This document shows positions 12,085-50,486 of a DNA stretch of 60,940 nucleotides, one piece after another. A program made the translations under genes and the position numbers. Position 1 is the stretch's first letter; every line of letters starts with the position of its first letter. Source of the DNA: a bacterium (GTDB lineage: Bacteria > Patescibacteriota > 4484-211 > GCA-002791395); contig JALWZS010000023.1 of NCBI GenBank assembly GCA_027002475.1, forward strand, positions 1 through 60,940, read 5' to 3'. The notes beneath the pieces are model-generated. The model worked only from the letters and a program-made list of their open reading frames with translations, had not been told where the DNA came from and searched no databases.

Positions 12085-12475
12085 TCTAACTATAAAGTAG
12101 CATTTACTTGCTTTTGTAGCAACGGTTTTTAGCAAAACAGATGAGCCAGACAGGCTTCTGTAAAGCCCCAAAACAAGCGGCGTTAAGCAGGCGGGCGAAT
12201 TTGCCAGTCTTGCCCATGTGAAGCGGTAAACTGCCCATACCCAAAACCTACACGAGTGCACCGGAGCACATCTTATCGGTCATGCTGTGCAAGCCCTATT
12301 AAACCCTAAGAGCAACAAAGATTAAACGCATGCGCTACTAGCAATGCACGCACCCAATTGCCAGCGCCCCATCCCCCCTAGTGTTATGCGTTATTGCATG
12401 ACAAGAAAGGCAACGAAAGATACCCACATAAATAATAACTAAGTCCTAAAAGTTCGAGCAACAAACACTAAAGGG

Positions 12476-13420: not shown

Positions 13421-13876
13421 CGCATATCAATCGTCATTGCTACTTCTCCGTCATTACGAAGGAGCGAAGCGACTGAAGTAATCTCAAGGCAGTGGGATTG
13501 CTTGGCTAACACTCGCAATGACAATATAACACTCGCGATGACTATTAACCCGTCATTGCGAGCCGAATGCGTGGCAATCTATACATCGGGGAGATCGCCG
13601 CGTCGCGCTGCATGGAATGAGACTGCCGCGGTCGATCCGGCTCCCTCGCAGTGACGAGAGCGCGTCATTGCGATTCCGATGCATATCGGGAGAAGCAATC
13701 CAATCGCCGCGTCGAAAAGCTGCGCTTTCTTCCTCGCGATGACAGGAAGAATGAGATTGCCGCAGTGAATCACTGCGTGATTACTTCGCAATGACACATT
13801 GACCGTTATAGCTACCCTCCCGTCATTACGAAAGAGCGAAGCAACTGAAATAATCTATACATCGACAGCAACGCCG
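13421..13876. repeat. hairpin-repeat array R1 (GTCATTGCGAG/CTCGCAATGAC family)
   Basis: About 10 core copies in both orientations, with inner arms GGCAATCT / AGATTGCC and a CGCAGTGAATCACTGCG palindrome. Confidence 0.85.
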
Positions 13877-13906
13877 ATGGTAAAATACACATGTACTGCA
13901 TTCTCG

Positions 13907-14191
13907 ATGAAGCGAAAGGGGTATATCTACATCCTAACCAATAAGTATAATCATGTTTTGTATGTAGGGGTTACAAGCAACTTAGTAAGACGTATTAACG
14001 AACACAAATTGAGAGTAGGAAGTAAATTTACCAGTAAGTACAAGATCGATAAGCTTGTATATTATGAAACTTTTGACGATATCGAAGAAGCTATTGCTAG
14101 AGAAAAGCAAATTAAATCAGGATCCAGAGCTAGAAAGATTAAATTAGTAGAATCAATTAATCCTCAATGGAAAGAGCTAGAGCCAGTTTAA
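13907..14191 (+). CDS. small stand-alone GIY-YIG (URI-domain) nuclease family protein, 94 aa
   Basis: MKRKGYIYILTNKYNHVLYVGVTSNLVRRINEHK...YYETFDDIEEAIAREKQIK matches the GIY...YVG...R..EH...E pattern of the GIY-YIG fold. The upstream part of ORF 13799.. is repeat sequence. Confidence 0.85.
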   Translation: MKRKGYIYILTNKYNHVLYVGVTSNLVRRINEHKLRVGSKFTSKYKIDKLVYYETFDDIEEAIAREKQIKSGSRARKIKLVESINPQWKELEPV

Positions 14192-14204
14192 GAAATACAA
14201 CTAC

Positions 14205-14725
14205 AGGAAATTGCCGCAGTAAATTACTACGTGATCACTTCGCAATGACACATTGACTGCCATTGCGGGCGCAGTGGAGAAACATGGTTTCTCCCGTAAG
14301 CATGCGAAGTATGCGTCCATTGCGAGCGCTAGCGTGGCAATCTCCAATGTATAGATTGCTTCGTCGTAAATCTTTGATTTACTCCTCGCAATGACGGCTT
14401 GGTGTATTATCGTGATTTCTCGTCATTACGAAGGAGTGCAACCACTGAGGCAATCTCCTGTAAGCATACGAAGCAATATCATGTAGATAGACTGCCGCGC
14501 CTTCGGCTCGCAGTGACGGAAAGGGAAGTGCGCGAGGTTCGTCACTGCGAGCCCGCAACAAGCGGGAGAAGCAGTCTTAACTAACGAGATTACTGCGCAA
14601 TTTGCTACGGCAAATTACTCGTAATGACAAGAAAAATGCAATGCTATTTCACTTGCAGTGACGCTAAGCGTCAGATCGCCGCGCCACTTTGTGGCTCGCG
14701 GTGACGGGAAGAGTAAAACTACCGC
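14205..14725. repeat. hairpin-repeat array R2
   Basis: About 10 core copies plus the double-hairpin module GGAGAAAC-N4-GTTTCTCC-CGTAAGCATGCG..TATGCGTCC. Confidence 0.85.
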
Positions 14726-14734
14726 AGGTGCATG

Positions 14735-14762
14735 TTGACAACTGCCACACCTATTATATACT
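14735..14762 (+). promoter_or_regulatory. sigma70-like promoter for relBE (TTGACA, 16 nt, TATACT)
   Basis: TTGACA at 14735-14740 and TATACT at 14757-14762. ATG follows 11 nt later at 14774. Confidence 0.5.
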
Positions 14763-14773
14763 TTATATACACC

Positions 14774-15046
14774 ATGAAGACGACGGTAATAAACATCAAA
14801 ACAACAAACGAAGTCAAAACCCAAGCACAAGAGATAGCCAAAGAGTTAGGAATTAGCCTTAGTTCACTCATCAATGCTTACTTAAAGCAACTTACTCGCA
14901 CAAAACGAGTTGTATTTGATCTTAATCCTTACCCAAACGAACAAACAAGACAGTACTTAAATAATGTACATAATACCGATACGTCACCGACGTTTAACTC
15001 TATAGATGCAGCTAAACAATGGCTGGAAGAACAAACTAAAAAGTAA
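14774..15046 (+). CDS. relB: type II antitoxin, RelB/DinJ family (ribbon-helix-helix)
   Basis: MKTTVINIKTTNEVKTQAQEIAKELGISLSSLINAYLKQL is a typical RHH antitoxin N-terminus. It lies 20 nt upstream of the RelE-like gene. Confidence 0.8.
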   Translation: MKTTVINIKTTNEVKTQAQEIAKELGISLSSLINAYLKQLTRTKRVVFDLNPYPNEQTRQYLNNVHNTDTSPTFNSIDAAKQWLEEQTKK

Positions 15047-15066
15047 CCGCAACTTTAAACAATCAA

Positions 15067-15345
15067 ATGAGTACGCATATCCGATTTAGCAAAAAGTTCG
15101 TGAAGGGTTTCAAGAAACTCAACCGCAAAACACAAAAACGTTTTTACGATAGGCTTAAAATCTTTGAAGAAAACCCTTATCACCCAACGCTTCGAAACCA
15201 CCAGCTAGCTGGAGAGTACTCCCAGTTTAGAAGCATCAACATAACTGGCGATATTCGTGCAATATATCACGTTGTCAGGCAAGAGGAGAAAGTGCAAGTC
15301 ATACAGTTTGATTTAATCGGTAGCCACAGTGAACTGTACGAATGA
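15067..15345 (+). CDS. relE: type II toxin, RelE/StbE-type mRNA interferase family
   Basis: 92 aa with ...NPYHPTLRNHQLAGEYSQFRSINITGDIRAIYHV...IGSHSELY, the RelE/ParE-superfamily pattern. Confidence 0.8.
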   Translation: MSTHIRFSKKFVKGFKKLNRKTQKRFYDRLKIFEENPYHPTLRNHQLAGEYSQFRSINITGDIRAIYHVVRQEEKVQVIQFDLIGSHSELYE

Positions 15346-15349
15346 CAAC

Positions 15350-15670
15350 ACGGGAAGTTAGATTGCTTCGTTGAATCACTCAAAAGAGTTTCTCGTCACT
15401 GCGACTTGGTGCCAACCAACACGGCAGTCTATCTATATGAGATTGCTTCGCCTTCGTCTCGCAATGACGATCAACGTGTCATTACGAAGGAGCGAAGCGA
15501 CTGAAGTAATCTCAAGGCAGTGGGATTGCTTCGCTGCCGCTCGCAATGACGCGCTCTCGTCACTGCGAGGGAGCCGGAACGACCGTGGCAGTCTAGAGCG
15601 ATGGATTGCTCCGCGTACTTGAGATTGCCGCAGTCATTGCACTCCTTCGCAATGACAAAACAAATCAAGC
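15350..15670. repeat. hairpin-repeat array R3
   Basis: About 7 core copies, including the compact hairpin GTCATTGC-actccttc-GCAATGAC. Confidence 0.85.
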
Positions 15671-15674
15671 GACC

Positions 15675-16664
15675 TTACTTTTTCGCTTTCTTGGTGTGGC
15701 TTTTTACTACAGCTTTTGCGTAAAGCTTGAGGAAGATAACTATTGCCAAGATAAATCCAATTACAACTCCAAGAACGGTTAGTATAAATGGAATTGGTAT
15801 CAGCCAAAATTCTACAGTCCCCATTGCAACGGTAGTTGATGGCTCACCGTAAACTAGTGTTCCTTTTGCAGAGTACTTCCCTATTCGTGGTACAAATCCA
15901 AGCCAAGGTTTTGGGTCCCATGTTTCTTTAAATTTTCTAACACTGTTTGGAAGCACATTAGCAAACTTTTTGTTTATTTGAATTACCTCTTCTTTACCAC
16001 CTGCAGAGTTATAAATTTCTATAAGACCGGACGGCTTTATATGGGTATTTCCAGTGTTTTCAAATCTTACAAAAAAGTTAACTGGTGGATATTGATAAAA
16101 AAGCTTATCAGTTTCAAACGATAAAACCTGCCCCTCCTGCGTTGTGTCGCCAGCAACATTAATTAAAGCCAAAATTGTAACCTCATACTGAGCACCAACC
16201 GCATTCCCACCTTCCGGAGCACCGATCTTTTCTTTCACAACTATAGCCCCATGATGGCTACCCGGCTGAGCGTCCTCAGGGACACTTATCCTTACAGGCA
16301 CCACTTTCCGTTCGCCTGGCTTTAGGTCTATTGAATCTGATGGAAATATAATCCAGTCAGACAAACTACCTTCCACATTTCCGCCTACAAAAACTGCTTG
16401 TCCACTTTCATCTTCTGCTGGCTTAAAGTCATCTGTATACAAGACAACCGTCTTTTCATAGTCGTCTTGGTTTGTAATCTTCACATCAACGGTTAAAGAC
16501 TCGCCTGGCAGAATGTCGGATTGATCGATAAGGGCTGGCGATACCATGATGCCACCGCTAGAGTTTTGATTATTCTCCTGTGCAACAACGCGTACCGCAA
16601 CAAACGCGGCAACAGATAAAAATGCAACGAGAGTTAAGAGATATGAGCGATAATTTATTTTCAT
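15675..16664 (-). CDS. cell-surface protein with DUF916/DUF3324-like architecture, paralog 2
   Basis: ATG at 16664 gives MKINYRSYLLTLVAFLSVAAFVAVRVVAQ. Motifs include WIIFPSDSIDLKPGERKVVPVRISVPEDAQPGSHHGAIVV and IGKYSAKGTLVYG. The C-terminal helix is followed by KSHTKKAKK. The ORF part upstream of 16664 is repeat sequence. Confidence 0.7.
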   Translation of the reverse strand: MKINYRSYLLTLVAFLSVAAFVAVRVVAQENNQNSSGGIMVSPALIDQSDILPGESLTVDVKITNQDDYEKTVVLYTDDFKPAEDESGQAVFVGGNVEGSLSDWIIFPSDSIDLKPGERKVVPVRISVPEDAQPGSHHGAIVVKEKIGAPEGGNAVGAQYEVTILALINVAGDTTQEGQVLSFETDKLFYQYPPVNFFVRFENTGNTHIKPSGLIEIYNSAGGKEEVIQINKKFANVLPNSVRKFKETWDPKPWLGFVPRIGKYSAKGTLVYGEPSTTVAMGTVEFWLIPIPFILTVLGVVIGFILAIVIFLKLYAKAVVKSHTKKAKK

Positions 16665-16673
16665 GCAACAAGT

Positions 16674-16702
16674 ATTGTGCCAGCAAATCAGATGTAGGTC
16701 AA
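16674..16702 (-). promoter_or_regulatory. promoter candidate TTGACC, 17 nt, CACAAT, 9 nt upstream of ATG 16664
   Basis: Read on the minus strand. There is no SD sequence in the gap. Confidence 0.4.
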
Positions 16703-16734
16703 CAGGTATGAAATCGGTTGAGACTGTGACGTAC

Positions 16735-17140
16735 GCTTGTAGCAGATTGCTTCGCCTTCGGCTCGCAATGGACGCATACTGCGTATGCTTACAGGAGAAA
16801 CGCAGTTTCTCCATCATGCCATGAGCGATGACGAGGAGACGAAGGCGTTCAATTTGTCATCGCGAGTCTTTTCATGTCATTACGAGACCGCCATACGCGG
16901 GAGAAGTAATCTCATCGATTGAGACTGCGTCGTCACTACGTTCCTCGCAGTGACGGGAAAGCAGCGGAGAAGTGCAACTTCTCCTATAAGCACGCGAAGC
17001 GCGCGTCCATTGCGAGAAGGAAATCAAAGATTTTCGACGAAGCAATCTCTACTGCTATTAGATCGCCACGTCGCTACGTTCCTCGCGATGACAGTAGTAG
17101 CGTCGTCATTGCGAGCGCTAGCGTGGCAATCCCATCTGAT
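16735..17140. repeat. hairpin-repeat array R4
   Basis: About 9-10 core copies, the module CGTCACTACGTTCCTCGCAGTGACG, and two GGAGAA..TTCTCC double-hairpin modules. Confidence 0.85.
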
Positions 17141-17145
17141 ACCCC

Positions 17146-17176
17146 TCATAGAAAAGGCCCCCTTGCGGGGGCCTTT
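17146..17176 (-). terminator. rho-independent terminator after the 387-aa secreted protein gene
   Basis: Perfect 10-bp GC-rich stem AAAGGCCCCC-ttgc-GGGGGCCTTT (17153-17176). On the minus strand it is followed by TTTTCTAT. Confidence 0.7.
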
Positions 17177-17315
17177 CCCAAAAGTGCTATCTCTGACAGT
17201 CATACACGCTTATTATCGCCTGTATGCCGTGGTCCAGGATCAATCACGCCTTATTATTTGGGCCTAACTGTCCTACAACACTCCGTAGCTTTACGCGTAG
17301 GAGTGAACGCTTACA

Positions 17316-18479
17316 TTAGAATGTAGCGGTTGCACGGAATGTCAGTGTGTTTGTATAGTCGCTAGCAGCAGCGGTTGACCGACCTGCAACTGCTCGTGCC
17401 TCGATCTGTGCACTTCCTGAAACTACTGGACCACTTGTTGTGTAAATGTTCGCAGTAGTGCCAAATGAAGTTTGTACAGGAGACGCATCAGTTGCTGCAG
17501 CACTATCGTATGAAGCATCAGGAGTCATGGTAGTTCCACTAGCATCTTCACTTTCAGATACTGCAACTATTCCCCACGATCCATCCACGCTATTAGTGCT
17601 TAATGTTGCAAGGTCAGAGCTGACAAATGGTATGTTATCACTAGCTGCTGTACTGCTAAGACCATTGGAGTCATCAGTTATAACCTGAACAACTGTACCG
17701 TTAGCGGCGTTGCTGTCGAGGTCTAACCAGATTTCGGATACTCCACTCGTACTACCTGTAGTAACAGTATCGTATGTTAACTCACCTAGGTCTAATGTAT
17801 ATGGCGCGTCACTATCACCACCACCATCAGCAATATCTAAGTCGAATGTGATGTATGTATCAACTGAAGCGGTAACAGTTACCTGATCACTATCCATGAT
17901 CGGCACATCTACTGCAAATGCATCATCACCAAATGTTCCTGACAGGTTTATCTCTTGCGAACCTGCAGTCCCTGGGTTGGTTAAACGATCTGTACCACCT
18001 GATGCCGTACTCCCTACTTCAATAGTGATAGTAGCAGCCGCGGATGATGCAGTGTAAGAACTACAAGCCTCAAAGGTCAAGGTTCCTGCAGCATCGGCAA
18101 CAGTAACTGCAATATTATCAGCGCCCGCCGTACAGGTAGGCGAAGCCCCGACATCTACAATCGTCCGTTCAGTGCCGTCATTAAAATCGATGTCAGCAAC
18201 AGCCAAATTAGTACCATCTAAGGTAAAACCTGAGCTGTCCTCGTTAAAATCAACAATGATTGTTTCACCTGCAGCAAAAGTTTCTGATGCTGACAGTTGA
18301 AAGGTAATTGTATGACCAGCGGCCGTAGAAATTGCATGACGAGTAAGCTCATCCTTAGCACTCTGAACTGTAGTAGCGTAAACCTTCTGAGATCCAGAAA
18401 GCCCTACAAACAGTTGGAATGCCATTAGTGCAATACCTACACTTGCGATAGCACGACTTTTTCGTACTTTTTTGAGCAT
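17316..18479 (-). CDS. secreted Thr/Ser/Ala/Asp-rich beta protein with a WxL-like C-terminus (387 aa)
   Basis: ATG at 18479 is preceded by AAGGAGGTGA. The signal peptide is MLKKVRKSRAIASVGIALMAFQLFVGLSGSQKVYA. Internal motif VDTYITFDLD...YTLDLGELTYD. It ends SDYTNTLTFRATATF. Confidence 0.75.
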   Translation of the reverse strand: MLKKVRKSRAIASVGIALMAFQLFVGLSGSQKVYATTVQSAKDELTRHAISTAAGHTITFQLSASETFAAGETIIVDFNEDSSGFTLDGTNLAVADIDFNDGTERTIVDVGASPTCTAGADNIAVTVADAAGTLTFEACSSYTASSAAATITIEVGSTASGGTDRLTNPGTAGSQEINLSGTFGDDAFAVDVPIMDSDQVTVTASVDTYITFDLDIADGGGDSDAPYTLDLGELTYDTVTTGSTSGVSEIWLDLDSNAANGTVVQVITDDSNGLSSTAASDNIPFVSSDLATLSTNSVDGSWGIVAVSESEDASGTTMTPDASYDSAAATDASPVQTSFGTTANIYTTSGPVVSGSAQIEARAVAGRSTAAASDYTNTLTFRATATF

Positions 18480-18544
18480 ATTTTGCTCACCTCCTTTCTC
18501 GTTTTTAATGTACGTAAACAAAACTCATATTATTCAATGGTATA

Positions 18545-18835
18545 TAAGATTGCGTCGCTGGCGCTCGCAATGACAGAAAAAAAGCTCGTAATGGACGTAC
18601 GCTCCGCGTACTTAAGATTGCCGCAGTCATTGCACTCCTTCGCAATGACAAAAACCCGTCACTGCGAGGAACGTAGTGACGCGGCAGTCTGACGCCTAGC
18701 GTCATTGCGAGGTAATCACGCAGTGATTTAACGAAGCAATCTAATTTGGTAGAGATTGCCACGCCTTCGGCTCGCAATGACGACAATCCGTCACAGAGAT
18801 TACTTCTCCCGCCCATGGTGGGATCGTAATGGCGA
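18545..18835. repeat. hairpin-repeat array R5
   Basis: About 10 core copies, including CGTCACTGCGAGGAACGTAGTGACG. Confidence 0.85.
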
Positions 18836-19139
18836 AGCCTAGCCATAGCAGAAGTAAACATAACCCTTAAAGGCTCTAAAGAAGTTTGGGACAGTTGTGA
18901 AACTTCTTTTTTCATAAGTACTACTCTATCCTCTACAAAATCATGGTCGATGTCAATACCAAACGTGCCAGAAAACGACACGATACTATCGGGCACGCAC
19001 CCTCAAGACTATGGGGCTAGGGGCTTTAGGGCGGTTAAGTTTACGAGTAGCGCGGCACTAGTTTAGATTGATAGCATCGAACAAAACAGGACAGTACAAA
19101 TAAACCACAAAGCACAAAATCCAAACAGCACAAACAAAC

Positions 19140-19628
19140 CCGTCACCGCGAAGCAGTCTCGCCTATTGCTAGATTGCCACGCCACTTCGTGGCTCGCAAT
19201 GACGAAACCACCACCGCCACAAGGCGTCACCTGGTGACTCGCCGCGGAGACTCCGACGCATAGCGTCACTGCGATCCCGCCTTGGGCGGGAGCAGCAGTC
19301 TCCTGAGTACGGAGATTGCTTCGCGTGATTGAGATTGCCGCAGTCGTTGCACTCCTTCGCAATGACGCGAGGAATCGCGATAATACACCAAGTCGTCATT
19401 GCGAGCGCTAGCGAAGCAATCCCACTACCCTGAGATTACTTCAGTCGCTTCGCTCCTTCGTAATGACGGGAGAAGTATAGCAATGGACGCAGGCAAAGCC
19501 TGCTTACAGGAGACACTGCGTTTCTCCACCTCCCCCAACCGTCATCGCGAGCCACAACGTGGTGCGGCGATCTACAACAACGAGATTGCCACGGAATTTA
19601 TATGATAAATTCCTCGCAATGACAAGGG
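19140..19628. repeat. hairpin-repeat array R6
   Basis: About 10 core copies plus one GGAGACAC..GTTTCTCC module. It lies directly downstream of the ABC permease gene. Confidence 0.85.
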
Positions 19629-19632
19629 ATTC

Positions 19633-20883
19633 TCATTCGTATCGTAGTGCGTCGAGGGGGTCAATTTTGGATGCTCGCCTTGCTGGATAAAACCCAGTTA
19701 TCGCCCCCATCAAGAACGACGAGATTACAACCAACACAATAAACCACAAAGGAGCAGAGAATAAATCTACAGCCTCTCCTCCAGCCCTTTGCGCAATCGT
19801 GTTGATAATATAGTTAATCGTTTCCGTACTTATAAACCCTAACGCCAACCCCGACATGCCCCCAAGAAATCCAATCAGTATAGAATCAAATAAAAACAAA
19901 CTCCATATATCCTTACTGGTAGCACCAATAGCTTTCATAATTCCCACCTCACGAGTACGTTCAAGAAGCGAAATTGTTAAGGTGTTAAACATTCCAACTG
20001 CAGAAATGAAAAGCGCAATAATACCAACGGCAGTAAACATAATTTGCGTAAAACCAAAGATTTGATTTAACTGATCTAAAGTTTCTGTCAGAGCCGAAAC
20101 CGAGTACCCCCTGCTTTGTAATTCTTTCTTTAATGGATCTACGCTATCCTGGTCCGCCACCTGCACCTTAAGCAGTGACGGCTCCAGAGCATCAATCCCA
20201 GACACTCGCCCCAAAGGCATATACATATAGTTACTGCCCGCATCAACAATTCCAACAATCGTAAATTGTTGAGTAAAATCAATCTTTCTACTTAATGTCC
20301 CACCAGTCTCCCCCTCACCAAGTAACTGATCTTGCTTTTGTTGTTCTTTTAGAATCAGCTCTTTTGGCACAATTAAAGTTACGCCCACGTTTTTACCCAA
20401 CGCCTCTTCTGGAGTCAGGTTAAACAATTTAAGAAGATGGGTTGTTACTACAATTGCGTACTGATCGTCCTGCGTATAAAGCTCTCCTAAGGTTGGAGTG
20501 ACACCAGCCAAGCCGAAAAAGTCCGGCTCCACCAAATAAGCAACAGTCTGCCCAACTAAATCTCCATAATCTAGTGTTGCAGCCATGTTCTTTTGCGGCA
20601 ATACTTTCACTACGCTAGAATTCGTTTCTGGTAGCGAAGTAAAGTAGTCATCGCTAAGAGAAAGCAAATCCTTAACACCGGCGCCAACAGTAACATCTAA
20701 GGTAAGTAGCGACTGCGACGTAACGATTTTATTTACAACAAGTTCCTGAATACCAAACGCCAACGCAATTAAAAAGTAAACAATACTTATACCAACCCCA
20801 ACACCAAGCACCGTTAAAAACACCCGCAGTTTGCGGTTTTTAAATCGCTGTAGATTTAACTTAATTACTGATCTTAATTTCAT
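19633..20883 (-). CDS. MacB/FtsX-type ABC transporter permease (4 TM, large extracytoplasmic loop)
   Basis: The N-terminal TM is followed by a ~230-aa loop and a C-terminal FtsX-like bundle (...MKAIGATSKDIWSLFLFDSILIGFLGG...FYPARRASKIDPLDALRYE). There is an ATGA overlap with the ATPase gene. Confidence 0.85.
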   Translation of the reverse strand: MKLRSVIKLNLQRFKNRKLRVFLTVLGVGVGISIVYFLIALAFGIQELVVNKIVTSQSLLTLDVTVGAGVKDLLSLSDDYFTSLPETNSSVVKVLPQKNMAATLDYGDLVGQTVAYLVEPDFFGLAGVTPTLGELYTQDDQYAIVVTTHLLKLFNLTPEEALGKNVGVTLIVPKELILKEQQKQDQLLGEGETGGTLSRKIDFTQQFTIVGIVDAGSNYMYMPLGRVSGIDALEPSLLKVQVADQDSVDPLKKELQSRGYSVSALTETLDQLNQIFGFTQIMFTAVGIIALFISAVGMFNTLTISLLERTREVGIMKAIGATSKDIWSLFLFDSILIGFLGGMSGLALGFISTETINYIINTIAQRAGGEAVDLFSAPLWFIVLVVISSFLMGAITGFYPARRASKIDPLDALRYE

Positions 20884-22817: not shown

Positions 22818-22818
22818 G

Positions 22819-29070: not shown

Positions 29071-29104
29071 TTAACACACCACTTAAATGTAGTACTTATC
29101 ATTT

Positions 29105-29133
29105 AGTATAGTTGAATTTACGCCTACACTCAA
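29105..29133 (-). promoter_or_regulatory. promoter candidate for the 2083-aa/ABC operon (TTGAGT, 17 nt, TATACT)
   Basis: Minus strand reads TTGAGT gtaggcgtaaattcaac TATACT, about 35 nt upstream of ATG 29070, with GGTG as a weak SD. Confidence 0.5.
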
Positions 29134-29269
29134 GGATTAATGGTGTTTTAAGTCAAAAATAGATGGCGCTATAGAGCCTAAAAGTGACACACAAAAGAAT
29201 CGTCTCAGGAAAAACGCATACATCAACAGAATACGCGCGTGTAACAGGGAATTGAGGGTGCAACATACA

Positions 29270-29828
29270 CGATGCGGCGATCCCATCGATTGAGACTGCC
29301 ACGTTGGTTAATACCAACTCGCAGTGACAGAGAACTCAATACCACCGCGAATGTAAAAGTCAAAGCCCAAGAAACCAAACCATAAACAGAACAAACAAAT
29401 TAAACTTTTTAATTACAAAACTAGCGCTTAAGACATGAATCGCATCTTAGGTGTGTTTTTCTACCGACCAGACCTGTCACTGCGAGGAACGTAGTGACGA
29501 AGCAGTCCCAAACGATAGATTACTTCGCTATCGCTCGTAATGGACGCATACTTTGTATGCTTACAGGAGAAACGTAGTTTCTCCACCAACCACTCATCAT
29601 CGTGAGCCACAAAGTGACGCGGCAGTCTGACAGTTCGTCATTACGAAGGAATGAAATGACTGAAGTAATCCCAAACGATGGAGATTGCCACGCCTTCGGC
29701 TCGCAATGCCAGGAAAACCGAGACCGCTCATAATGACAAATCGGTCGATGGAGACTGCCACGAAATTTACTTGATAAATTCCGAGCAATGACGCGGGAAA
29801 TCGAAAATCCTCGTAATGGCGGGGAATC
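29270..29828. repeat. hairpin-repeat array R7
   Basis: About 9 core copies plus the double-hairpin module. It contains the left copy of the 105-nt inverted repeat. Confidence 0.85.
29382..29486 (+). repeat. left copy of a 105-nt inverted repeat (partner 36975-37079)
   Basis: 103/105 identical to the reverse complement of 36975-37079 by manual alignment. Weaker similarity extends to about 29355-29542. Confidence 0.85.
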
Positions 29829-29830
29829 GC

Positions 29831-30811
29831 TTATGGGATTGAGCCAACAGGCAAGCGAATTATTTGGTACGCGTGATAGTTTGGTCTGTCTACAGTCGGT
29901 AACACATAAGAAGAAACAAAAACGATATCACCCTGAACCAAGTTTTCTCGCGATATCGAATAAAAGTCATCTAAATCCCCCCACGCAACATACTTTGTAT
30001 TGGATTCTAAAATCACATGACTGCTTGTGTCTTGAAAGCCACGCCGCCTAATCGTAAAACCATCATCAGTAAAGCTCTTTATCTCAGCAACAAATGAATA
30101 TGGATAGTAGTCAATATTAAGATACTTCACTGTTAACTTGCCATTTTCTATCTGCTCACCAACGACAGCGTAATCAGTATGGTCTATTTGATCCCAAGAA
30201 ATCGGCACAACGCTACCACCAACCTGAAACCGCTTAACCAATGTGGCTTCTGGTAAAACATAGGCACTTTGCAGACCATTCGTAGTTGACAGTTTTATCG
30301 TTCTATCGTTATCTGCCTGCATAATTTCACCCATTATTAGCCTTTCACCAATATCTTTTCTACTTGAGTTAAAAAATGCAAACGGAACAGTTTTGATATC
30401 AACTATTTTGGTAGATAAATCTCTAAATTGGAAAATTGTTAAAGTGTGCAGTCCTTCGTCTATGGGCATATCAAAGTTAAATGCCCCTTTTTCGTCTGTT
30501 AATGTAAGATAGCTCTTCCTACCATCCAGCAAAACGATTCCCTTTTTCGACGACAACCTACCTGCTACTTCTGGCTTCTGTCCGACATAAATCGCACCAG
30601 GGAGCGGTGAAAACAACTCTATACCCGGCTTATCAGATTGTTGCGGTGGGGTGATAAAAAGATCTCGTTCTGCAAGTACAGTAGGTTCGTCTTTTCTTAA
30701 TAACTCTTCTAGATCCTGGCTACCATGAACCGTAAAATAATAAGCCACTCCGCCCACAATGCTTAACGTAATAACAAGCGCGACAAAAACTATAGCAATA
30801 ACCCTTTTCAT
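29831..30811 (-). CDS. hypothetical membrane-anchored extracytoplasmic protein (N-terminal TM, Ig-like domain)
   Basis: MKRVIAIVFVALVITLSIVGGVAYYF, then a beta-rich ectodomain (..GRKSYLTLTDEKGAFNFDMPIDEGLHTLTIF..). It lies 18 nt downstream of the 363-aa gene. Confidence 0.7.
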   Translation of the reverse strand: MKRVIAIVFVALVITLSIVGGVAYYFTVHGSQDLEELLRKDEPTVLAERDLFITPPQQSDKPGIELFSPLPGAIYVGQKPEVAGRLSSKKGIVLLDGRKSYLTLTDEKGAFNFDMPIDEGLHTLTIFQFRDLSTKIVDIKTVPFAFFNSSRKDIGERLIMGEIMQADNDRTIKLSTTNGLQSAYVLPEATLVKRFQVGGSVVPISWDQIDHTDYAVVGEQIENGKLTVKYLNIDYYPYSFVAEIKSFTDDGFTIRRRGFQDTSSHVILESNTKYVAWGDLDDFYSISRENLVQGDIVFVSSYVLPTVDRPNYHAYQIIRLPVGSIP

Positions 30812-30829
30812 TTCTATTTAAGACTTAAT

Positions 30830-31921
30830 TTAAAATACCCCATAAATCGTGTACGTAATCGTGTGGGTATATACACCTGCGCTTTGTGCCTTACCCACCT
30901 CTATTGCATAAACTACATTGGTTTGTTCTCCGCTTGTTACAGGACCAGGGTTATACGCAACTTCATAAGCGGTTGTATCAAAAGCCGCAAATGTGTCATC
31001 AGAAACAAACCGATTTACATTACCAGTTTTTAGCACTTCATCAGACGTGTGATAACCATAAGCCGAGCGAAGGATAGTAGTTGAGGGCCACGCACTAGGG
31101 GAAGCGTTGGTACCACTAACCGAGTCTATTTGATCTGACGAACTTGCCATAGCACTTTCTTGACGTACTGATACCTGATATCCAGAAACCGCATTAGTCG
31201 TAACCGTAATAGAGTTGGCTGCTTCCTGACGCGTATTAAACGGCAACTCCCCAAAAGAAACGCTTGATGACGTGGTCGTAACATCAGTTGTAATCCCCTC
31301 TAATGAAGAGCCACTAGAAATACCACCAATACTGGCTGTAATGCTCGGGCTAACTGTAGCAGCGGTTGCTTCAGGACCATATGGGCTTTCGGTAAAATCA
31401 CCATGCATCGCCTTAACTTTTATCTTATATGTAGTGTCGGGAGCTAAACCTGTTATGTACTCCCCAGAAGAACCGCCCCAATTTGCATAGGTTTGATAGT
31501 CCTCGGTGCCAAGGGTGTCGCCGATCGTGTTATCGCTTTGCACATACCGCGTGGTAGCCCAATTGTCGTCTGTTATTGCAATGGCGAAAGTGGTGTCGCT
31601 CGGGTTATTACTTACATTAATTGTGAAGTGCAGTTTGTTGTACCAGCTATCAGAGTTAACAAACGTTGGAGCCGATGGAACATTTGCTTGAATTGGGTAT
31701 ATGTCACCAGCGTTAAGATCGTAATTGGACGAAGAACCAACACCTTCATCGCCTTCTCCTACAACACCATATAAGGAGTTGTTTGTAGAGTCACTAGTTC
31801 CGCTAGCTCCCCCTAGTTTGTACCCTTTAAGCTGGTAATTACTACTAGCAGGAAATATAAAAAGTGACAAGAATGTTAGTACGAATAAAGACCGCATATG
31901 TTTACGCCAAGAGTTAACCAT
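30830..31921 (-). CDS. secreted protein with an Fn3 domain and a WxL-like C-terminal domain (363 aa)
   Basis: Signal peptide MRSLFVLTFLSLFIFPASS; the start could be 31921 or 31897. The Fn3 region is PSAPTF...GLAPDTTYKIKVKAMHG. Internal motifs are VSFGELPFNT and VSGYQVSVRQ. It ends AGVYTHTITYTIYGVF. Confidence 0.75.
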   Translation of the reverse strand: MVNSWRKHMRSLFVLTFLSLFIFPASSNYQLKGYKLGGASGTSDSTNNSLYGVVGEGDEGVGSSSNYDLNAGDIYPIQANVPSAPTFVNSDSWYNKLHFTINVSNNPSDTTFAIAITDDNWATTRYVQSDNTIGDTLGTEDYQTYANWGGSSGEYITGLAPDTTYKIKVKAMHGDFTESPYGPEATAATVSPSITASIGGISSGSSLEGITTDVTTTSSSVSFGELPFNTRQEAANSITVTTNAVSGYQVSVRQESAMASSSDQIDSVSGTNASPSAWPSTTILRSAYGYHTSDEVLKTGNVNRFVSDDTFAAFDTTAYEVAYNPGPVTSGEQTNVVYAIEVGKAQSAGVYTHTITYTIYGVF

Positions 31922-32094
31922 ATATGTATATTACAAGAACCACTAAAAAATCTAAAGCGAAGCAATAAAGTTTAAAAGACACACCACACCTAAGCTTTCA
32001 TAAATACACCTAGCATTAAGCCAAATTCACAGCTACTGTGCCCTAGATAGGTAATGCATTTCTACCTACTCTAGTATAAAATAAATGTAGCCCA

Positions 32095-32994
32095 ATGAGA
32101 TTAAAATACTTATTACTATTGCCCTTACTGTTACTTTTCATGTTTCAAGCGAATGTGTTCGCGCAAGAGTCCAAACAAACCGTTTTGGTATATCCAACAT
32201 CGCTCACCATAAACAGTATTAGCAACGACTCGATAGACAATGTCATAAGATACACAAACAAATTTGATATCCCAGTAAGTATCGACCTTACAATTGAGCC
32301 CATCACCGAGCCCCTAGGCAAAAACCGCGATATCATCAAAGAATGGATTAGCCTATCTGAGTCCAACTTTACGGTTGAAGCAAACTCTTTTAAAGACATA
32401 ACTATAACAATTAACGTACCCCAAAAAGCGGAAGTAGGACCGTATTTTTTTAAGGTGTTAGCAGATATCAGGGCTATTAATCCACCATCATCTAGAAATA
32501 CAATTTACATTGGCAATAAATTAACAACAAGCATCACGCTTCGCATCACAGGCAAACTCCTTGAGGACGCAAGCATCGAAAACATTACGGTCCCAAGCCT
32601 ATTTGGAGCCAAAGACAAGATTGATCTTACAATTATTAATCGAAGCAACGTTACCATAGTCCCCAATGGAGTGGTAACCCTACGCAACACACTAAACAAA
32701 CTCGATATACCTATAAAAGTCTCAGCCGAAACAATCGCCCCACAAAGTAGTAGCACTATTAGTGTTAAACTCCCCGAAGAATTGTTGTGGGGAAAGTATA
32801 ATGTCGATGTTCAGTTGCAGTACGGCTTAACACACAAATCTATGGACGCATCGGCTTCGTTTTACAATCTACCAATTGGTTCAATCGCCATTTCAATGCT
32901 ATCTGGCTCAATACTATTTACTATTCTGTATTTTGCAATTAGGCACCATGACAGAGTCAAACGAGCCTTATACGACTTATCACATGAAAACTAA
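32095..32994 (+). CDS. cell-surface protein with DUF916/DUF3324-like architecture, paralog 3
   Basis: Signal peptide MRLKYLLLLPLLLLFMFQANVFA. Motifs include WISLSESNFTVEANSFKDITITINVPQKAEVGPYFFKVLA and LWGKYNVDVQLQYG. The C-terminal helix is IAISMLSGSILFTILYFAI, followed by RHHDR. Confidence 0.7.
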   Translation: MRLKYLLLLPLLLLFMFQANVFAQESKQTVLVYPTSLTINSISNDSIDNVIRYTNKFDIPVSIDLTIEPITEPLGKNRDIIKEWISLSESNFTVEANSFKDITITINVPQKAEVGPYFFKVLADIRAINPPSSRNTIYIGNKLTTSITLRITGKLLEDASIENITVPSLFGAKDKIDLTIINRSNVTIVPNGVVTLRNTLNKLDIPIKVSAETIAPQSSSTISVKLPEELLWGKYNVDVQLQYGLTHKSMDASASFYNLPIGSIAISMLSGSILFTILYFAIRHHDRVKRALYDLSHEN

Positions 32995-33946
32995 TACAAA
33001 GGAGAAACCACAACACACAACTAGCAGGTGGCGGCGCGGCCTGACAGCAGTAATTGCGATGACATTAATCTTAGTTACAGGCAGGCTAATTGTCAGAGCG
33101 GTTGAACAAGTGACAATTACCGCATGGGTGCGAGATACAATTGTTGTATTTGATGGGCACACTTTCCCACTGGCTTATGTCCAAATTAAAGACGGAACAA
33201 CTGTTGTCGGAACAACTACTGCAGATGGTAATGGCGACTTCTACAAAGAAATAAAAGCTGTGTCTGGTGGAGTCCATACCTTCAATGTGACCTCAACAGA
33301 CGGAGATGGAACCGAAACAGGACCTGCTAGCTATACGATCGATGTCCCACCACAAACAACCACAACAATTAGCAATATACTCGTTCCCTCTACCTTATAC
33401 ATTGACGAAACCTCCTTACAAATCAATGACACATTTACGCCGCGAGGTTCTGCATATAAAGGAAGCACGATAGAAATATACGCTAATGGTAGCAAAATTG
33501 GAGAAGCGACAACAAGCTCAAATGGAACATGGAGTAAGAATCTAACAGCAAACTTTGGGGCGGGTACGTTTACTATTACCGTAATCGTTGTTAATGGAGG
33601 TAACCAAAGCGAGCCATCAAAGGGCATTAATATTAATGTAGCAACCGCACCAACTCCAACCCCAACAGTTACACCAACACCCAAACCTACTAGTACTCCA
33701 ACACCTACCCCCAAAACTACAACAACACCACAACCAACACCTACCCCAAAACCAACAGCAACACCAACGCCCACACCTAAATCATGTAGGAGGTCTGACC
33801 TTAACTGTGACACCAAGGTTAATTTAGTTGACTTTAGTATTTTGCTGTATCACTGGGGTACAAATCATGCAGTAGCTGACATCAACAAAGATGGTAATGT
33901 AAATCTAACTGACTTTAGTATTATGTTGTACGATTGGACAGGCTAA
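32984..33946 (+). CDS. membrane-anchored protein with two Ig-like domains, a Pro/Thr linker and a C-terminal dockerin-like module
   Basis: ATG at 32984 overlaps the upstream stop by 11 nt (ATG 32948 is also possible). The TM is GLTAVIAMTLILVTG and the linker is TPTPTVTPTPKPTSTPTPTPK... The duplicated Ca-loop motif is DLNCDTKVNLVDFSILLYHWG / DINKDGNVNLTDFSIMLYDW. Confidence 0.75.
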   Translation: MKTNTKEKPQHTTSRWRRGLTAVIAMTLILVTGRLIVRAVEQVTITAWVRDTIVVFDGHTFPLAYVQIKDGTTVVGTTTADGNGDFYKEIKAVSGGVHTFNVTSTDGDGTETGPASYTIDVPPQTTTTISNILVPSTLYIDETSLQINDTFTPRGSAYKGSTIEIYANGSKIGEATTSSNGTWSKNLTANFGAGTFTITVIVVNGGNQSEPSKGININVATAPTPTPTVTPTPKPTSTPTPTPKTTTTPQPTPTPKPTATPTPTPKSCRRSDLNCDTKVNLVDFSILLYHWGTNHAVADINKDGNVNLTDFSIMLYDWTG

Positions 33947-34015
33947 ATGCCCTGTTTGCTACGCAAAGTAGACTAGACATACGTGTCAAATGTTAATAGA
34001 ATAAAAGGAGTATAT

Positions 34016-36658
34016 ATGAACTTAAAGAAAAGCATACTGCCCATTTTTTTAGGAGGTTTATTGGTTCTTGGAAATCTATCCTTATCCAATAAAGCTTATG
34101 CTGCGTCAGCAACACTTTACCCTATCGCTTCGACTAGAAGTGTGTATAAAGGGAATACTTTTATAGTTACCATCAAGGTAAACGCCAATGGCAATCCCAC
34201 TAACGCCTATCAAGTAACAGTTAAATACCCCACCAGCAAGGTACAAGCAATTGGCATTAGTGGGAGCAGACTGCCAACCGCCCTACCTGTTCACGCGCCT
34301 AGTTATAGCAATAGTAGTGGGACAGCGAGTTTCGAATCTGGAGTTATAACACCATACACAGGCTCAAGTGGGACATTAGGTTCTATTACATTTAGAGCTG
34401 TAAATACTGGCACCGCAACAATTAGTATCAGTACACCAGCGCAAGTCCTTATCGCAGACGGGAACGGCACAAACGTATTAGGATCAAGAGGAAGCGTTGC
34501 AATTAATATCACAGAACCACCTCGTGGCGGTCCAAAAATCTCTTCTGAAACTCACCCAGACCAAGAGGCTTGGTATAAAGAAAATACCGTCAAATTCTCG
34601 TGGGCTAAGACTGGAGAAGATCTGGGTTACAGTGTTGTATTCGACCAAAAGGCAGATACAGTTCCGGGTCAAGTTCAAACAACAACAGATAACTCGATAA
34701 CTAAAAAAGATGTCGCAGATGGTGTTTGGTACCTTCATGTACGCACTAGACTTGCATCTACATGGAGTGTAACAAGTCACTACAAAGTCAAAATCGATAC
34801 AACCCCGCCAGAGGATTTCGAAATCACAGTAGATCCTGAAGGAGTTTCTGACATTCCAGATCCAACAATACATTTTTCTACAACGGACAACGGCGCAGGA
34901 ATAGACTATTACGAGGTAAGTATCGACGATGGTAAATTCAAAAAAGCTAAAAGCCCACTCAAATTAGAGCCACTTACATCAGGTACGCATGTTGCCACCG
35001 TTAAAGCCGTTGACAAAGCCGGCAATGAAACCTTTGCAAAAACTCAGATTAAAATAAAAGAAATTAAACCACCAAGTATAAAGTTATCAACCACCGAAAT
35101 ACTCTTTGGCGAGGAGGTAACCGTATCAGGCAGTACCATACCTAACGCGCAAGTACACCTATTTATAGACTCCACCGACAATCCATTAGATGAAATAGTA
35201 AGCGATGGCAGCGGTAACTATACCTACACAATTGGTGCATTTAAACTTGTTCCGTGGGAACACAAGATATTAGTTTCTGTAACAGAAAAAGAAACTAATT
35301 TAAGCAGTATACCTGCAGAAAGTGAGCCTATTACTATTATCATGTCGGCAATACGTTTGGCAGGGTACACTATTCCATGGTGGATGATAGTTGTTGGTAT
35401 TGGGGTTGTAGCTGCACTACTTTTGGCATTAGTGCTGTGGATAATTCTCGCGCTCACTAGACATCGCCACAAAATGTTAAAAAAGATAGACAGTACCCAA
35501 GAGAAACTAGAACAAGATATCAAGCAGCTCGAGCAAGAGGTGCAAACTCAAGTTAGCGACCTAACAGCAGCGCAAAAACTCCAACAAGAATTAGAAAAAG
35601 AGGTTCAAAACATTGGTTCTGCAATGGATGAAATGCGACGACTAGAACATGGTAAAAAGGATAGTAAGAAAAAAGACAAAAAGAGTGATGATGACAGCAA
35701 GAAAGATAACGGAACAGGTTCTGCCCCAGCGGCACCAACTCCCCCACCCACTACACCCCCAACACCTTCTACACCTGCAGCATCACCGGTAACTCCTGAA
35801 ACAACTGGTGCTATGCCAACAAGCGGAGTCGCTCCAATTAACATACAAGCGCCACAGCCACAGCCACAGCCACAGCCACAGCCACAGCCACAGCCAAGTA
35901 TGACGCCAGCTCCTCCCAAAAAGCAAGCAGCAAAAATAAAGCCAATCCAAGAGACAACAAATAGTTCTACAACACCAACGGCACAACCAACCAATGTACC
36001 AAAGGTAGCACCTAAAACGCCTACTACACCTACTGTTGAACAGACTTCTCCAACCCAAGCAGCCATACAACAACAGTCTAGCGCAGCTAACAAACAGAAA
36101 GTTAAACCAGTAACTCAAGCATCCCCAACTACCCCATCCATACAAACACCACCGAGAACGCAAAATACTAATCCAACAGTTGCACCTACTGCTAAGACCG
36201 TACCTACACCCCAAACAGAGACACCACCAACCTCCCAAGCTCCACAACAAGTAACTCCACCAGTAAACAATCCAACCCCAGTACCCGAAACTCAAAATGT
36301 TCCAATCACTACAACTCAACAACCAATAACAAAAGCTACACCTCAACAATCTTTAGCTCAAACCCCAACCCCTACCCCACCGCCAGTAGCCACTCCACTT
36401 AAGGCGGCAACGCCACAAACGCCACTTCCTACACCACCAGCAACACCTGCACAAGCCGTTCATTCGGCTCTTAATGCTATGGCTCCAGATCCAGTTCCGC
36501 CTACTGCACCAACGCAGCATGCAAAGACACCAGCTCCTCAAACGCCGAGTACGGCACCTACAACACCTCAGGCAAGTGCAGCTTCCAAGGAGCAACCTGT
36601 ACCAACACCGCTAGATCCAGATTCAAGCGACGACTCTCCTCCAATACTGCCAAGGTAG
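34016..36658 (+). CDS. type I membrane protein: signal peptide, cohesin-like domain, Ig/Fn-like domains, TM helix, coiled coil, ~330-aa Pro/Thr/Gln-rich tail
   Basis: AAGGAG lies 5 nt upstream of ATG 34016. The cohesin-like stretch is ATLYPIASTRSVYKGNTFIVTIKVNANGNPTNAYQVTVKYPTSKVQAIGIS...GTLGSITFRAVNTGTATISIS. The TM is WWMIVVGIGVVAALLLALVLWIILAL, followed by TRHRHK. Confidence 0.8.
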   Translation: MNLKKSILPIFLGGLLVLGNLSLSNKAYAASATLYPIASTRSVYKGNTFIVTIKVNANGNPTNAYQVTVKYPTSKVQAIGISGSRLPTALPVHAPSYSNSSGTASFESGVITPYTGSSGTLGSITFRAVNTGTATISISTPAQVLIADGNGTNVLGSRGSVAINITEPPRGGPKISSETHPDQEAWYKENTVKFSWAKTGEDLGYSVVFDQKADTVPGQVQTTTDNSITKKDVADGVWYLHVRTRLASTWSVTSHYKVKIDTTPPEDFEITVDPEGVSDIPDPTIHFSTTDNGAGIDYYEVSIDDGKFKKAKSPLKLEPLTSGTHVATVKAVDKAGNETFAKTQIKIKEIKPPSIKLSTTEILFGEEVTVSGSTIPNAQVHLFIDSTDNPLDEIVSDGSGNYTYTIGAFKLVPWEHKILVSVTEKETNLSSIPAESEPITIIMSAIRLAGYTIPWWMIVVGIGVVAALLLALVLWIILALTRHRHKMLKKIDSTQEKLEQDIKQLEQEVQTQVSDLTAAQKLQQELEKEVQNIGSAMDEMRRLEHGKKDSKKKDKKSDDDSKKDNGTGSAPAAPTPPPTTPPTPSTPAASPVTPETTGAMPTSGVAPINIQAPQPQPQPQPQPQPQPSMTPAPPKKQAAKIKPIQETTNSSTTPTAQPTNVPKVAPKTPTTPTVEQTSPTQAAIQQQSSAANKQKVKPVTQASPTTPSIQTPPRTQNTNPTVAPTAKTVPTPQTETPPTSQAPQQVTPPVNNPTPVPETQNVPITTTQQPITKATPQQSLAQTPTPTPPPVATPLKAATPQTPLPTPPATPAQAVHSALNAMAPDPVPPTAPTQHAKTPAPQTPSTAPTTPQASAASKEQPVPTPLDPDSSDDSPPILPR
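35852..35893 (+). repeat. (CCACAG)x7 hexanucleotide microsatellite encoding (PQ)7
   Basis: Seven perfect tandem CCACAG units, counted directly, in frame within the 34016..36658 gene. Confidence 0.95.
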
Positions 36659-36694
36659 AAAGAGGTTCAGGGGTTGAAGAGTTAGAGTGTTAGC

Positions 36695-37235
36695 CCTTTC
36701 GCCGCCATTACGAGAGCCTTCGGTCTCACGCGTCATTGTTCAGAATCTATCAAGTAAATTCCGTGGCAATCTAATATGCTGGAGCCTGCCGCAGTAAATC
36801 ACTGCGTGATTACTTCGCAGTGACGAACTGTCAGACTGCCGCGTCACTACGTTCCTCGCAGTGACGGGTGCTAAGTACGCGAAGCATATGTCCATTGCAA
36901 GCGGTCTTGGTTTTCCCGTCATTGCGAGCGATAGCGAAGTAATCTTCTTTTGGGACTGCTTCGCCGCTAGGCTTCTCGCAGTGACAGGTCTGGTCGGTAG
37001 AAAAACACACCTAAGATGCGATTCATGTCTTAAGCGCTAGTCTTGTAATTAAAAAGTTTAATTTGTTTGTTATGTTTATGATTTGATTGTTTGGACTTTG
37101 ACTTTCGTCATTGCGAGCCAAAGGCGTGGCAATCTCCATCGTTTGGGATTACCGCGTCACTTTGTGGCTCACGATTGTAAAAGTCAAGTCATCACACCGA
37201 TTTTCTCCTCGTAATAACGAATGGATTATTTAAAA
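36695..37235. repeat. hairpin-repeat array R8
   Basis: About 11 core copies. It contains the right copy of the 105-nt inverted repeat and fills the convergent gap between the 34016..36658 and 37238..38836 genes. Confidence 0.85.
36975..37079 (-). repeat. right copy of the 105-nt inverted repeat (partner 29382-29486)
   Basis: See 29382-29486. Weaker similarity extends to about 36918-37106. Confidence 0.85.
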
Positions 37236-50442: not shown

Positions 50443-50486
50443 GGAGAAGTGAAGCTTCTCCTGTAAGCACGCAAAGCGTGCGTCCA
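50443..50486. repeat. isolated double-hairpin module of the repeat family (GGAGAAG-N5-CTTCTCC, then GCACGC-aaa-GCGTGC)
   Basis: It has the same module layout as in arrays R2, R4, R6 and R7. It is the only copy seen in the housekeeping half and sits just 3' of htpX. Confidence 0.7.

Follow-up and report, generated by a model that had tools for sequence, protein, structure and literature searches.

What are the palindromic repeats that crowd the intergenic DNA of a patescibacterial surface-protein island, and which protein might act on them? The stretch in question is contig JALWZS010000023.1 of assembly GCA_027002475.1, analysed over all 60,940 nucleotides (the window), in which eight arrays of short hairpin units lie between the genes of the island. 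An earlier description made from the letters of this DNA (the sequence-only reading) had offered no function for the arrays and had missed a gene at 13907–14191 that ties them to the Ssn family of nucleases. We hold with good confidence that the arrays are accumulated hairpins with a CGTC tag, of the kind known as repetitive extragenic palindromes (REPs) or Ssn-related motifs (SRMs), and that the 94-amino-acid (aa) GIY-YIG protein encoded among them, a nuclease of the Ssn kind, is the candidate cognate protein.

The relevant precedent is SsnA of Neisseria meningitidis, a 94-aa GIY-YIG protein (CDD cd10448) that binds the NTS hairpin CGTCATTCCCGCGMAVGCGGGAATCYRG exclusively as single-stranded DNA (ssDNA), cuts a few nucleotides upstream of the tag and does not bind RNA; its critical positions are the three bases that precede the palindrome and the C that follows it (Chenal et al., Nat Commun 2025, PMC11893778). 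The same authors reported that ssn genes across phyla are flanked by SRMs, that NTS repeats cluster around key genes and surface genes, and that these repeats modulate the integration of transforming DNA (PMC11893778).

To establish the number of repeats in the window, we counted both the core GTCATTGCGAG and complete units. The core occurs 14 times without mismatch on the two strands of the window, where 0.03 matches are expected, 38 times with at most one mismatch and 65 times with at most two. About 58 of these 65 copies fall inside the arrays delimited by the sequence-only reading, and the remainder are scattered singles. Comparison of oriented copies revealed a longer unit, of which this core forms the 5' half. 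When the whole unit was required (tag, 5' arm, GA, complementary 3' arm and a C after it), a strict scan detected 46 units in the window, versus a mean of 0.35 in 20 Markov-shuffled controls; a relaxed scan returned 50, of which 48 are not nested. All of these 48–50 complete hairpins (about 0.4–0.7 expected by chance) sit within the eight arrays, between 13.4 and 37.2 kb. Together the arrays amount to 3,584 bp, and the share covered by units varies from 23 to 68% per array.

The units are strongly clustered. Between 12.3 and 37.2 kb, 50 of them lie in 4,922 bases of intergenic DNA, versus none in the 3,702 intergenic bases of the housekeeping half (37.2–60.9 kb). Housekeeping DNA of a sister genome (locus L204, 21 kb) and loci L001 and L002 also contain no unit. 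This distribution matches the clustering reported for the Neisseria repeats. Neighbouring units form 15 convergent, 13 divergent and 7 tandem pairs, the convergent ones mostly spaced by 11–12 nucleotides (nt), and some doublets recur as a whole (13450/13522, 15478/15550 and 19395/19467). Several claims of the sequence-only reading are borne out by these counts: the arrays are real, they make up roughly the 4 kb first estimated, they are confined to the island, and they draw on a small vocabulary used in both orientations (21 plus, 27 minus). Peptides of the VIAS... and ...LAMT type in spurious open reading frames (ORFs) do derive from the units. Its figure of 70–80 core copies was somewhat too high. 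Eight of its nine arrays stand; the ninth is a lone module that does not contain the 11-nt core. That the arrays are "not simple REP doublets" could not be upheld, since the CGTC/TGTC tag and the prevalence of convergent doublets are of REP type. A CRISPR array, also dismissed in that reading, was considered and rejected: there is no regular period, the units point both ways, the gaps between them range irregularly from 1 to 73 nt, and unit length varies.

The 48 non-nested units measure 25–42 nt and share one anatomy. An unpaired tag, (C/T)GTC, is present in every one of them, the base before GTC being C in 31, T in 17 and A or G in none. It is followed by a 5' arm of five bases (ATTGC 21, ACTGC 13, ATTAC 9, ATCGC 4, ACCGC 1) and by a purine-rich internal loop, with GA(G/A) on the 5' side and G(A/C/T)(A/G) on the 3' side. 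Between the two loop sides lies a variable insert of 6–30 nt, itself a mini-hairpin, of which about ten types occur. A C stands directly after the stem in 44 of 48 units, and the tail reads CTC, CTA or CCC. What had been described as separate modules A, C and D is a single unit with differing inner inserts, module A being two convergent units and modules C and D representing two of the insert types.

Evidence for the hairpin comes from covariation of the two arms. For this test, 5' boxes were picked blind to pairing and combined with the nearest 3' box of any transition type, with permutation controls. In the window and the sister genome taken together, 58 of 73 box pairs were exactly complementary, compared to 19.4 expected and to a maximum of 34 in 10,000 shuffles. 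Pairing is also kept in other lineages, where the stems read ATTCT/AGAAT, ATCCT/AGGAT, ACCCT/AGGGT and ATTCC/GGAAT: 22 of the 45 non-ATTGC 5' boxes that adjoin homologues of the nuclease gene have an exact complement followed by C, versus 0.4 expected. Independent mutation of the arms, which the sequence-only reading had named as the observation that would speak against conserved hairpins, was not seen. Its remark that variants are nearly all transitions was correct, but its suggestion that they are tolerated as G-U pairs on one strand was not: the arms change together, and only 1–2 of about 240 pairs are G.T. This pattern fits a DNA hairpin or a set of copy lineages and not RNA wobble. As a separate observation, in two insert types, GAGGAACGTAGTGACG and GAAGGAGTGCAATGAC (Table 1), the insert offers the CGTC tag and the 5' arm an alternative pairing partner in place of the 3' arm; the alternative fold of the first type has a predicted energy of −9.9 kcal/mol (z = −2.6) and would hide the tag.

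The island gene that lies between the first two arrays links the repeats to a protein. Its product matches the Pfam GIY-YIG domain (E = 1.5e-17) and no other domain. The candidate catalytic set Y8, Y19, R29, H33, E66 and N85 is invariant in the family alignment, and the Y–Y spacing of 11 and the Y–E spacing of 47 equal those of Y6, Y17 and E64 in SsnA. NCBIfam offers no specific family for this protein, only a sub-threshold match to group-I-intron endonucleases, and a PDB search returned only weak UPF0213 matches (E = 4.6e-5). At E ≤ 1e-5 the protein has 3,624 homologues; the 120 listed are single-domain proteins, mostly of 94–104 aa.

We scanned 80 metagenomic loci that encode such homologues for GTC, A...., a hairpin and a C in this order. 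A unit lies within 300 bp upstream of the gene in 59 of 78 loci and downstream in 55 of 73, and 44 loci have units on both sides. Within ±200 bp of the gene we counted 160 units, versus 2–4 per 200 bp farther out, and 201 of approximately 270 stems are ATTGC. The layout is stereotyped: a unit with its tag facing outward precedes the ATG, and an inverted unit on the minus strand begins 16–30 nt after the stop codon. The window gene is flanked in the same tag-outward, inverted manner. One homologue with 56% identity to the window protein (locus L159, E = 1e-36) has NTS-like repeats of the form CGTCATCCCGCG...CGCGGGATCCA at its flanks, and one of these repeats fits the published SRM pattern. This locus links two motif classes through one protein family.

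The unit is not restricted to this genome. In a search of one genome per species with the exact pattern GTCATTGCGAG-N6-30-GAAGCAATC, it was found in at least 120 species or loci. The matches listed come from about ten phyla and include Alpha- and Gammaproteobacteria (many Bradyrhizobium), Chloroflexi, Patescibacteria, Bacteroidia, Cyanobacteria, Zixibacteria, Planctomycetota and Desulfobacterota, as well as a Helicobacter and a Sporomusa. At these listed loci (L003–L122) the usual form is the convergent doublet. The commonest insert among the listed matches is CGNAGC (N = A 29, C 13, T 6, G 4), which gives d(GCGNAGC), presumably a very stable GNA-triloop mini-hairpin. Among the 120 loci listed, there is no recurrent neighbour family beyond generic ones (ABC ATPases, clusters of unidentified ORFs), with the exception of two GIY-YIG genes, one of them flanked by inverted units (L064). 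An apparent cluster of UvrA neighbours was discarded as single-linkage chaining of ABC ATPases. Three loci (L013, L112 and L017) carry this hairpin class and NTS-like repeats within 8 kb of each other. In the literature the core and sister-stem strings were found only as primers, and an Rfam search of the whole window at gathering scores returned only three tRNAs.

Comparison with the sister genome GCA_054010915.1 (locus L123) shows that the arrays turn over. The genes of the two genomes are about 80% identical and the arrays use the same vocabulary with different unit content. The ssn-like gene occupies the same orthologous position in both. The central 190 nt or so of array 1 are about 90% conserved in L123, and its edges differ. 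At the orthologous position L123 contains neither the RelB/YafQ-like cassette that follows array 2 in the window nor most of array 2; pieces of array 2 match array 4 of L123 in inverted orientation, in another intergenic region.

The anatomy of the unit, the covariation of its arms, the association of gene and repeats at 80 loci, the clustering and the turnover between sister genomes are the observations on which we base the assignment of the arrays to tagged hairpins with an Ssn-type nuclease. How such a system could work we infer by homology with SsnA of N. meningitidis, and this applies to ssDNA binding and cleavage, to an effect on recombination or transformation, and to the mechanism of spread. 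The nuclease would bind the hairpin only as ssDNA and on the tagged strand, as it may be exposed during uptake, replication or repair, and its nick would fall a few nucleotides 5' of the tag. Through the arrays, the surface-protein island would be supplied with sites at which ssDNA is cleaved strand-specifically, and with inverted homology at scattered positions. It is likely that ssDNA, whether incoming or transient, would then be cut, which would modulate recombination at the island loci. Turnover of units and cassettes between strains is a further likely consequence, with inverted homology favouring rearrangement, and units probably spread through the action of the same nuclease or by recombining with one another.

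Several points weigh against this reading. First, when the short units are folded as DNA with nearest-neighbour energies, they do no better than shuffled sequences (z = −0.2 to −0.9), so that the case for the hairpin rests on covariation and folding energy was not used as evidence. Second, the four stem types could in part be four copy lineages instead of repeated compensation. Third, the published SRM pattern HGTCWYN(0-2)YYVSBRHN(0-5)WNVSBRGN(0-2)RNCYNB, which is a search heuristic drawn from 29 genomes and not a functional definition, has no match in the window (0–1 in controls) and matches 2 of 80 homologue flanks; the published NTS pattern has no match in the window either. Fourth, the island bias was established on approximately 100 kb (about 60 kb of window and about 40 kb of the sister genome), not on a whole genome. 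Fifth, a role in transformation is carried over from a single species that belongs to a different phylum.

The alternative that survives best is a purely selfish one, to which we give tentative credence at most. It treats SRM-ssn-SRM as an autonomous mobile element of ssDNA, for which the GIY-YIG protein would be the transposase or the homing nuclease, and the arrays as its non-autonomous derivatives, which would pile up where insertions are tolerated and have no host function. A repeat–gene–inverted repeat structure at 44 loci resembles an insertion sequence (IS), the unit occurs across many phyla among the matches listed, doublets are copied as units, unit content turns over between sister genomes, and Chenal et al. 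themselves raised a selfish origin of SRM-ssn-SRM (PMC11893778). Against it, the ssn-like gene keeps its orthologous position in both sister genomes, the window contains a single copy, Ssn proteins are not known to have strand-transfer activity, and an effect on transformation has been measured at the level of the host in Neisseria (PMC11893778). This alternative is compatible with the data and also with our preferred explanation; the two are not mutually exclusive.

It is improbable that the units act as RNA hairpins (terminators, stabilisers of mRNA 3' ends or processing sites) and that the nuclease gene is a bystander. The arrays do lie at gene ends, the long units do fold well (z = −2.6 to −4.5), and Di Nocera et al. 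argued that many REPs are transcribed and located downstream of ORFs (PMC3733652). An RNA role is at odds with the near balance of the two orientations and with the almost complete disuse of G.T(U) wobble pairs. The units have no T-tails, terminator-like sites show no excess (6 versus 5.7 expected), and a separate hairpin of canonical terminator type follows the gene at 17316–18521. No Rfam family matches the units, and a search of 13.3–19.8 kb by E-value gave only a weak terminator-like match. SsnA does not bind RNA (PMC11893778), and the association of the gene with the repeats would be left unexplained. A side effect at the RNA level is conceivable.

Mobilisation of the units as classical REPs or REPINs by a REP-associated tyrosine transposase (RAYT, of the Y1/HuH type) is very unlikely. 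Palindromes with an unpaired 5' tag, recurring inverted doublets and mosaic arrays speak in its favour, but the tag is CGTC or TGTC instead of GTAG and the gene flanked by the units encodes a GIY-YIG nuclease. Pfam scans of the window ORFs found no transposase of any kind, Y1 or other, and no Y1 transposase is found among the recurrent neighbours of the 120 listed loci. Di Nocera et al. found no RAYT gene flanked by CGTC repeats (PMC3733652). Finally, an artefact or chance origin (mis-assembly, low complexity or a CRISPR-like array) is practically out of the question even for a sequence from a metagenome assembly, since an independent sister assembly with the same arrays in the same gene order excludes an assembly artefact, the unit recurs in at least 120 genomes with shuffle controls near zero, and irregular spacing in both orientations is unlike CRISPR.

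Table 1. Positions of the hairpin arrays, the nuclease gene, its flanking units and related features in the window (unless another locus is given).
Feature	Position	Strand	Description
Array 1	13421–13876		8 units by unit scans; upstream of the nuclease gene
ssn-like gene	13907–14191	+	94-aa single-domain GIY-YIG nuclease, from ATG 13907; between arrays 1 and 2
Upstream flanking unit	13822–13855	+	ends 51 nt before the ATG; tag away from the gene; 3' arm with one mismatch (ATAAT)
Downstream flanking unit	14209–14249	-	inverted relative to the upstream unit; starts 17 nt after the stop codon
Array 2	14205–14725		7 units and one module-B composite (14276–14346)
Array 3	15350–15670		6 units; with array 2 brackets a RelB/YafQ-like toxin-antitoxin pair
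Array 4	16735–17140		5 units and two module-B composites
Array 5	18545–18835		6 units
Array 6	19140–19628		7 units and one truncated module B
Array 7	29270–29828		4 units plus a module B and a segment of 160 nt; largely a mirror of array 8
Array 8	36695–37235		5 units; inverted copy of much of array 7
Module B, example	14276–14346	+	hairpin 1 GGAGAAAC/GTTTCTCC; hairpin 2 GCATGC-GAA-GTATGC; joined to a unit with tag CGTCC
Module B, copies	14276–14346, 16742–16812, 16966–17050, 19480–19527, 29510–29584; L123 9700–9770		five in the window, one in the sister genome
Lone module-B fragment	50443–50486	+	hairpins 1 and 2 only, without a unit; housekeeping half; same copy in L001
Insert types GAGGAACGTAGTGACG; GAAGGAGTGCAATGAC	18658–18689, 16923–16954, 29476–29507, 36834–36865; 15623–15656, 18616–18649, 19333–19366		alternative fold possible

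Some arrays contain more than plain units (Table 1). In module B, two additional hairpins are joined to the 5' side of a unit with the tag CGTCC. Its second hairpin has the general form GCAYRC-NNN-GYRTGC, and both hairpins show compensatory changes. Six copies were found, and the module is limited to the window, the sister genome L123 and L001. In array 1 of L123, 41 nt of module-B hairpins sit exactly at the tag (CGT/C) of a unit whose counterpart in the window (13552) is plain; either an insertion targeted to the tag or an exact deletion could account for this difference. Arrays 7 and 8 share four inverted repeats (I1–I4), one of 160 nt at 92% identity and further arms of 75, 62 and 44 nt, and bracket a block of five surface-protein genes (29831–36658) in the manner of a cassette or an invertible segment. 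The genes for a RelB-like antitoxin and a YafQ/ParE-like toxin (14732–15345) fit exactly between arrays 2 and 3 and have a strong promoter-like site of their own (TTGACA-16-TATACT, 14735–14762).

The neighbourhood of the arrays shows several additional features. By Pfam, the products of the island include large surface proteins, in which LVIVD, Kelch/fn3, WxL-interacting, Big and dockerin domains occur, and a MacB-like ABC/FtsX pair. The gene at 2392–12261 codes for a 3,289-aa LVIVD-repeat protein and contains long internal DNA repeats, namely about 510 nt at 4919–5426 and 9488–10005, and others near 8735–8880 and 9326–9516. The listed ORF 15675–16817 (380 aa) overlaps array 4 by about 80 nt, and its sister orthologue has 328 aa; translation probably starts farther downstream than listed, which would make the N-terminal extension repeat-derived. 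The terminator-like hairpin GGCCCCCGCAAGGGGGCC, followed by TTTTCT, lies outside the units on the minus strand at about 17160–17195, and coincides with the weak Rfam match noted above (terminator end of sroH, E = 0.27). In the housekeeping half, trigger factor (46882–47853) has only 323 aa, with N- and C-terminal domains and, by Pfam, no peptidyl-prolyl isomerase domain. The best named relatives of the cysteinyl-tRNA synthetase of the window are Patescibacteria of the Microgenomates type (Collierbacteria, Woesebacteria and Beckwithbacteria; 57–61% identity).

With these results, 3.6 kb of unexplained repeats gain an identity as a nuclease gene and its sites. The type of system, an Ssn nuclease with hairpin sites, is already known, and the window is a further case of this recently characterised system. 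It extends the system modestly: to a host in the Patescibacteria (candidate phyla radiation, CPR), to a widespread ATTGC-GAG...GAAG class that the published patterns miss, to a lineage-specific composite of three hairpins (module B), and to cassette-like layouts on a surface island. This class is apparently the commonest one beside these GIY-YIG genes, at about 75% of flanks versus 2 of 80 for the SRM pattern. Since the published pattern under-detects, the published association figures are probably underestimates. A wider set of ssDNA-cutting specificities becomes available, and spurious ORFs (VIAS..., ...LAMT) in annotations across phyla can be traced to such units. Patescibacteria have reduced genomes and are thought to depend on DNA uptake. 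The concentration of sites on a patescibacterial surface island makes recombination control at surface loci testable outside Neisseria.

A bolder interpretation, which we offer as speculation more likely to fail than to hold in all its parts, joins these elements. The GAG...GAAG internal-loop class (stems ATTGC, ATTCT, ATCCT and ACCCT, often with a d(GCGNAGC) tip) would be the main pan-bacterial site of a large Ssn clade that lies outside both published classifications, with SRM-ssn-SRM as an autonomous ssDNA element. The nuclease would seed the arrays and would be the "missing transposase" of the CGTC REPs. Surface-gene cassettes of DNA-scavenging CPR bacteria would be exchanged or inverted with the arrays as their borders; candidates are the toxin-antitoxin cassette and the block of five genes that the mirror-image arrays 7 and 8 enclose.

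Among known systems, the neisserial intergenic mosaic elements and the pneumococcal BOX elements are, like the arrays described here, mosaics of modules beside variable surface genes. The BOX and Correia modules are unrelated in sequence to the window units and, to our knowledge, have no dedicated nuclease. The subterminal hairpins of IS200/IS605 are likewise imperfect ssDNA hairpins that are recognised by an enzyme and cut a short distance away, but the enzyme has another fold, and those elements have defined left and right ends with a transposase gene and form no arrays. The REP/BIME (bacterial interspersed mosaic element) and REPIN-RAYT systems of E. coli and Pseudomonas share with the window tagged palindromes, inverted doublets copied as a unit, mosaic arrays and a single-copy nuclease gene with its own repeats on either side; they differ by a GTAG tag and a HuH Y1 transposase, where the window has CGTC/TGTC and a GIY-YIG nuclease.

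The CGTC-tagged REPs are closer. They have TGTC, or else CCTC, as a variant tag, stems that start with A-T, a short tail and mostly the form of inverted dimers; they were found in Alphaproteobacteria, Bacteroidetes, Chlorobi, Spirochaetes and Thermotogae, include dRS3 of Neisseria and RPE-4 and RPE-6 of Rickettsia, and "apparently lack a dedicated transposase" (Di Nocera, De Gregorio and Rocco, BMC Genomics 2013, PMC3733652). The window units agree in tag, first base pair, short tail, inverted dimers, intergenic location and absence of a transposase. Families CGTC-1 to CGTC-4, as worded in that paper, have a continuous stem of 8–9 bp and a loop of 4–5 nt, whereas the window unit has an outer stem of 5 bp, a conserved purine loop and an insert of 6–30 nt. 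What the window unit has in common with CGTC-3, whose sequence was deduced from the peptide VIAGLDPAIH, is limited to the outer ATTGC/GCAAT pairs, and the supplements of that paper contain no string of the ATTGCGAG type. Dense clusters of CGTC REPs are described in that paper as rare and the tail is CCA, in contrast to the dense arrays and the CTC/CTA/CCC tails found here. The window unit fits the CGTC REP superfamily and none of its four families as worded.

The closest parallel is the Ssn/SRM system. The window differs from SsnA and NTS in its ATTGC...GCAAT stem with GAG/GAA internal loop and variable inner hairpin, where NTS has a continuous ATTCCCGC stem, and in its host, which belongs to the Patescibacteria and not to the proteobacteria. 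It resembles them in encoding a single-domain GIY-YIG protein of about 94 aa, in the inverted hairpin repeats that stand on either side of its gene, in the unpaired CGTC tag, the palindrome that starts with AT and the C directly after it, and in the many copies clustered around surface genes. The window fits the Ssn system by the size and the domain of its protein, by the architecture of the flanks, by the tag and the trailing C, and by the clustering of the units.

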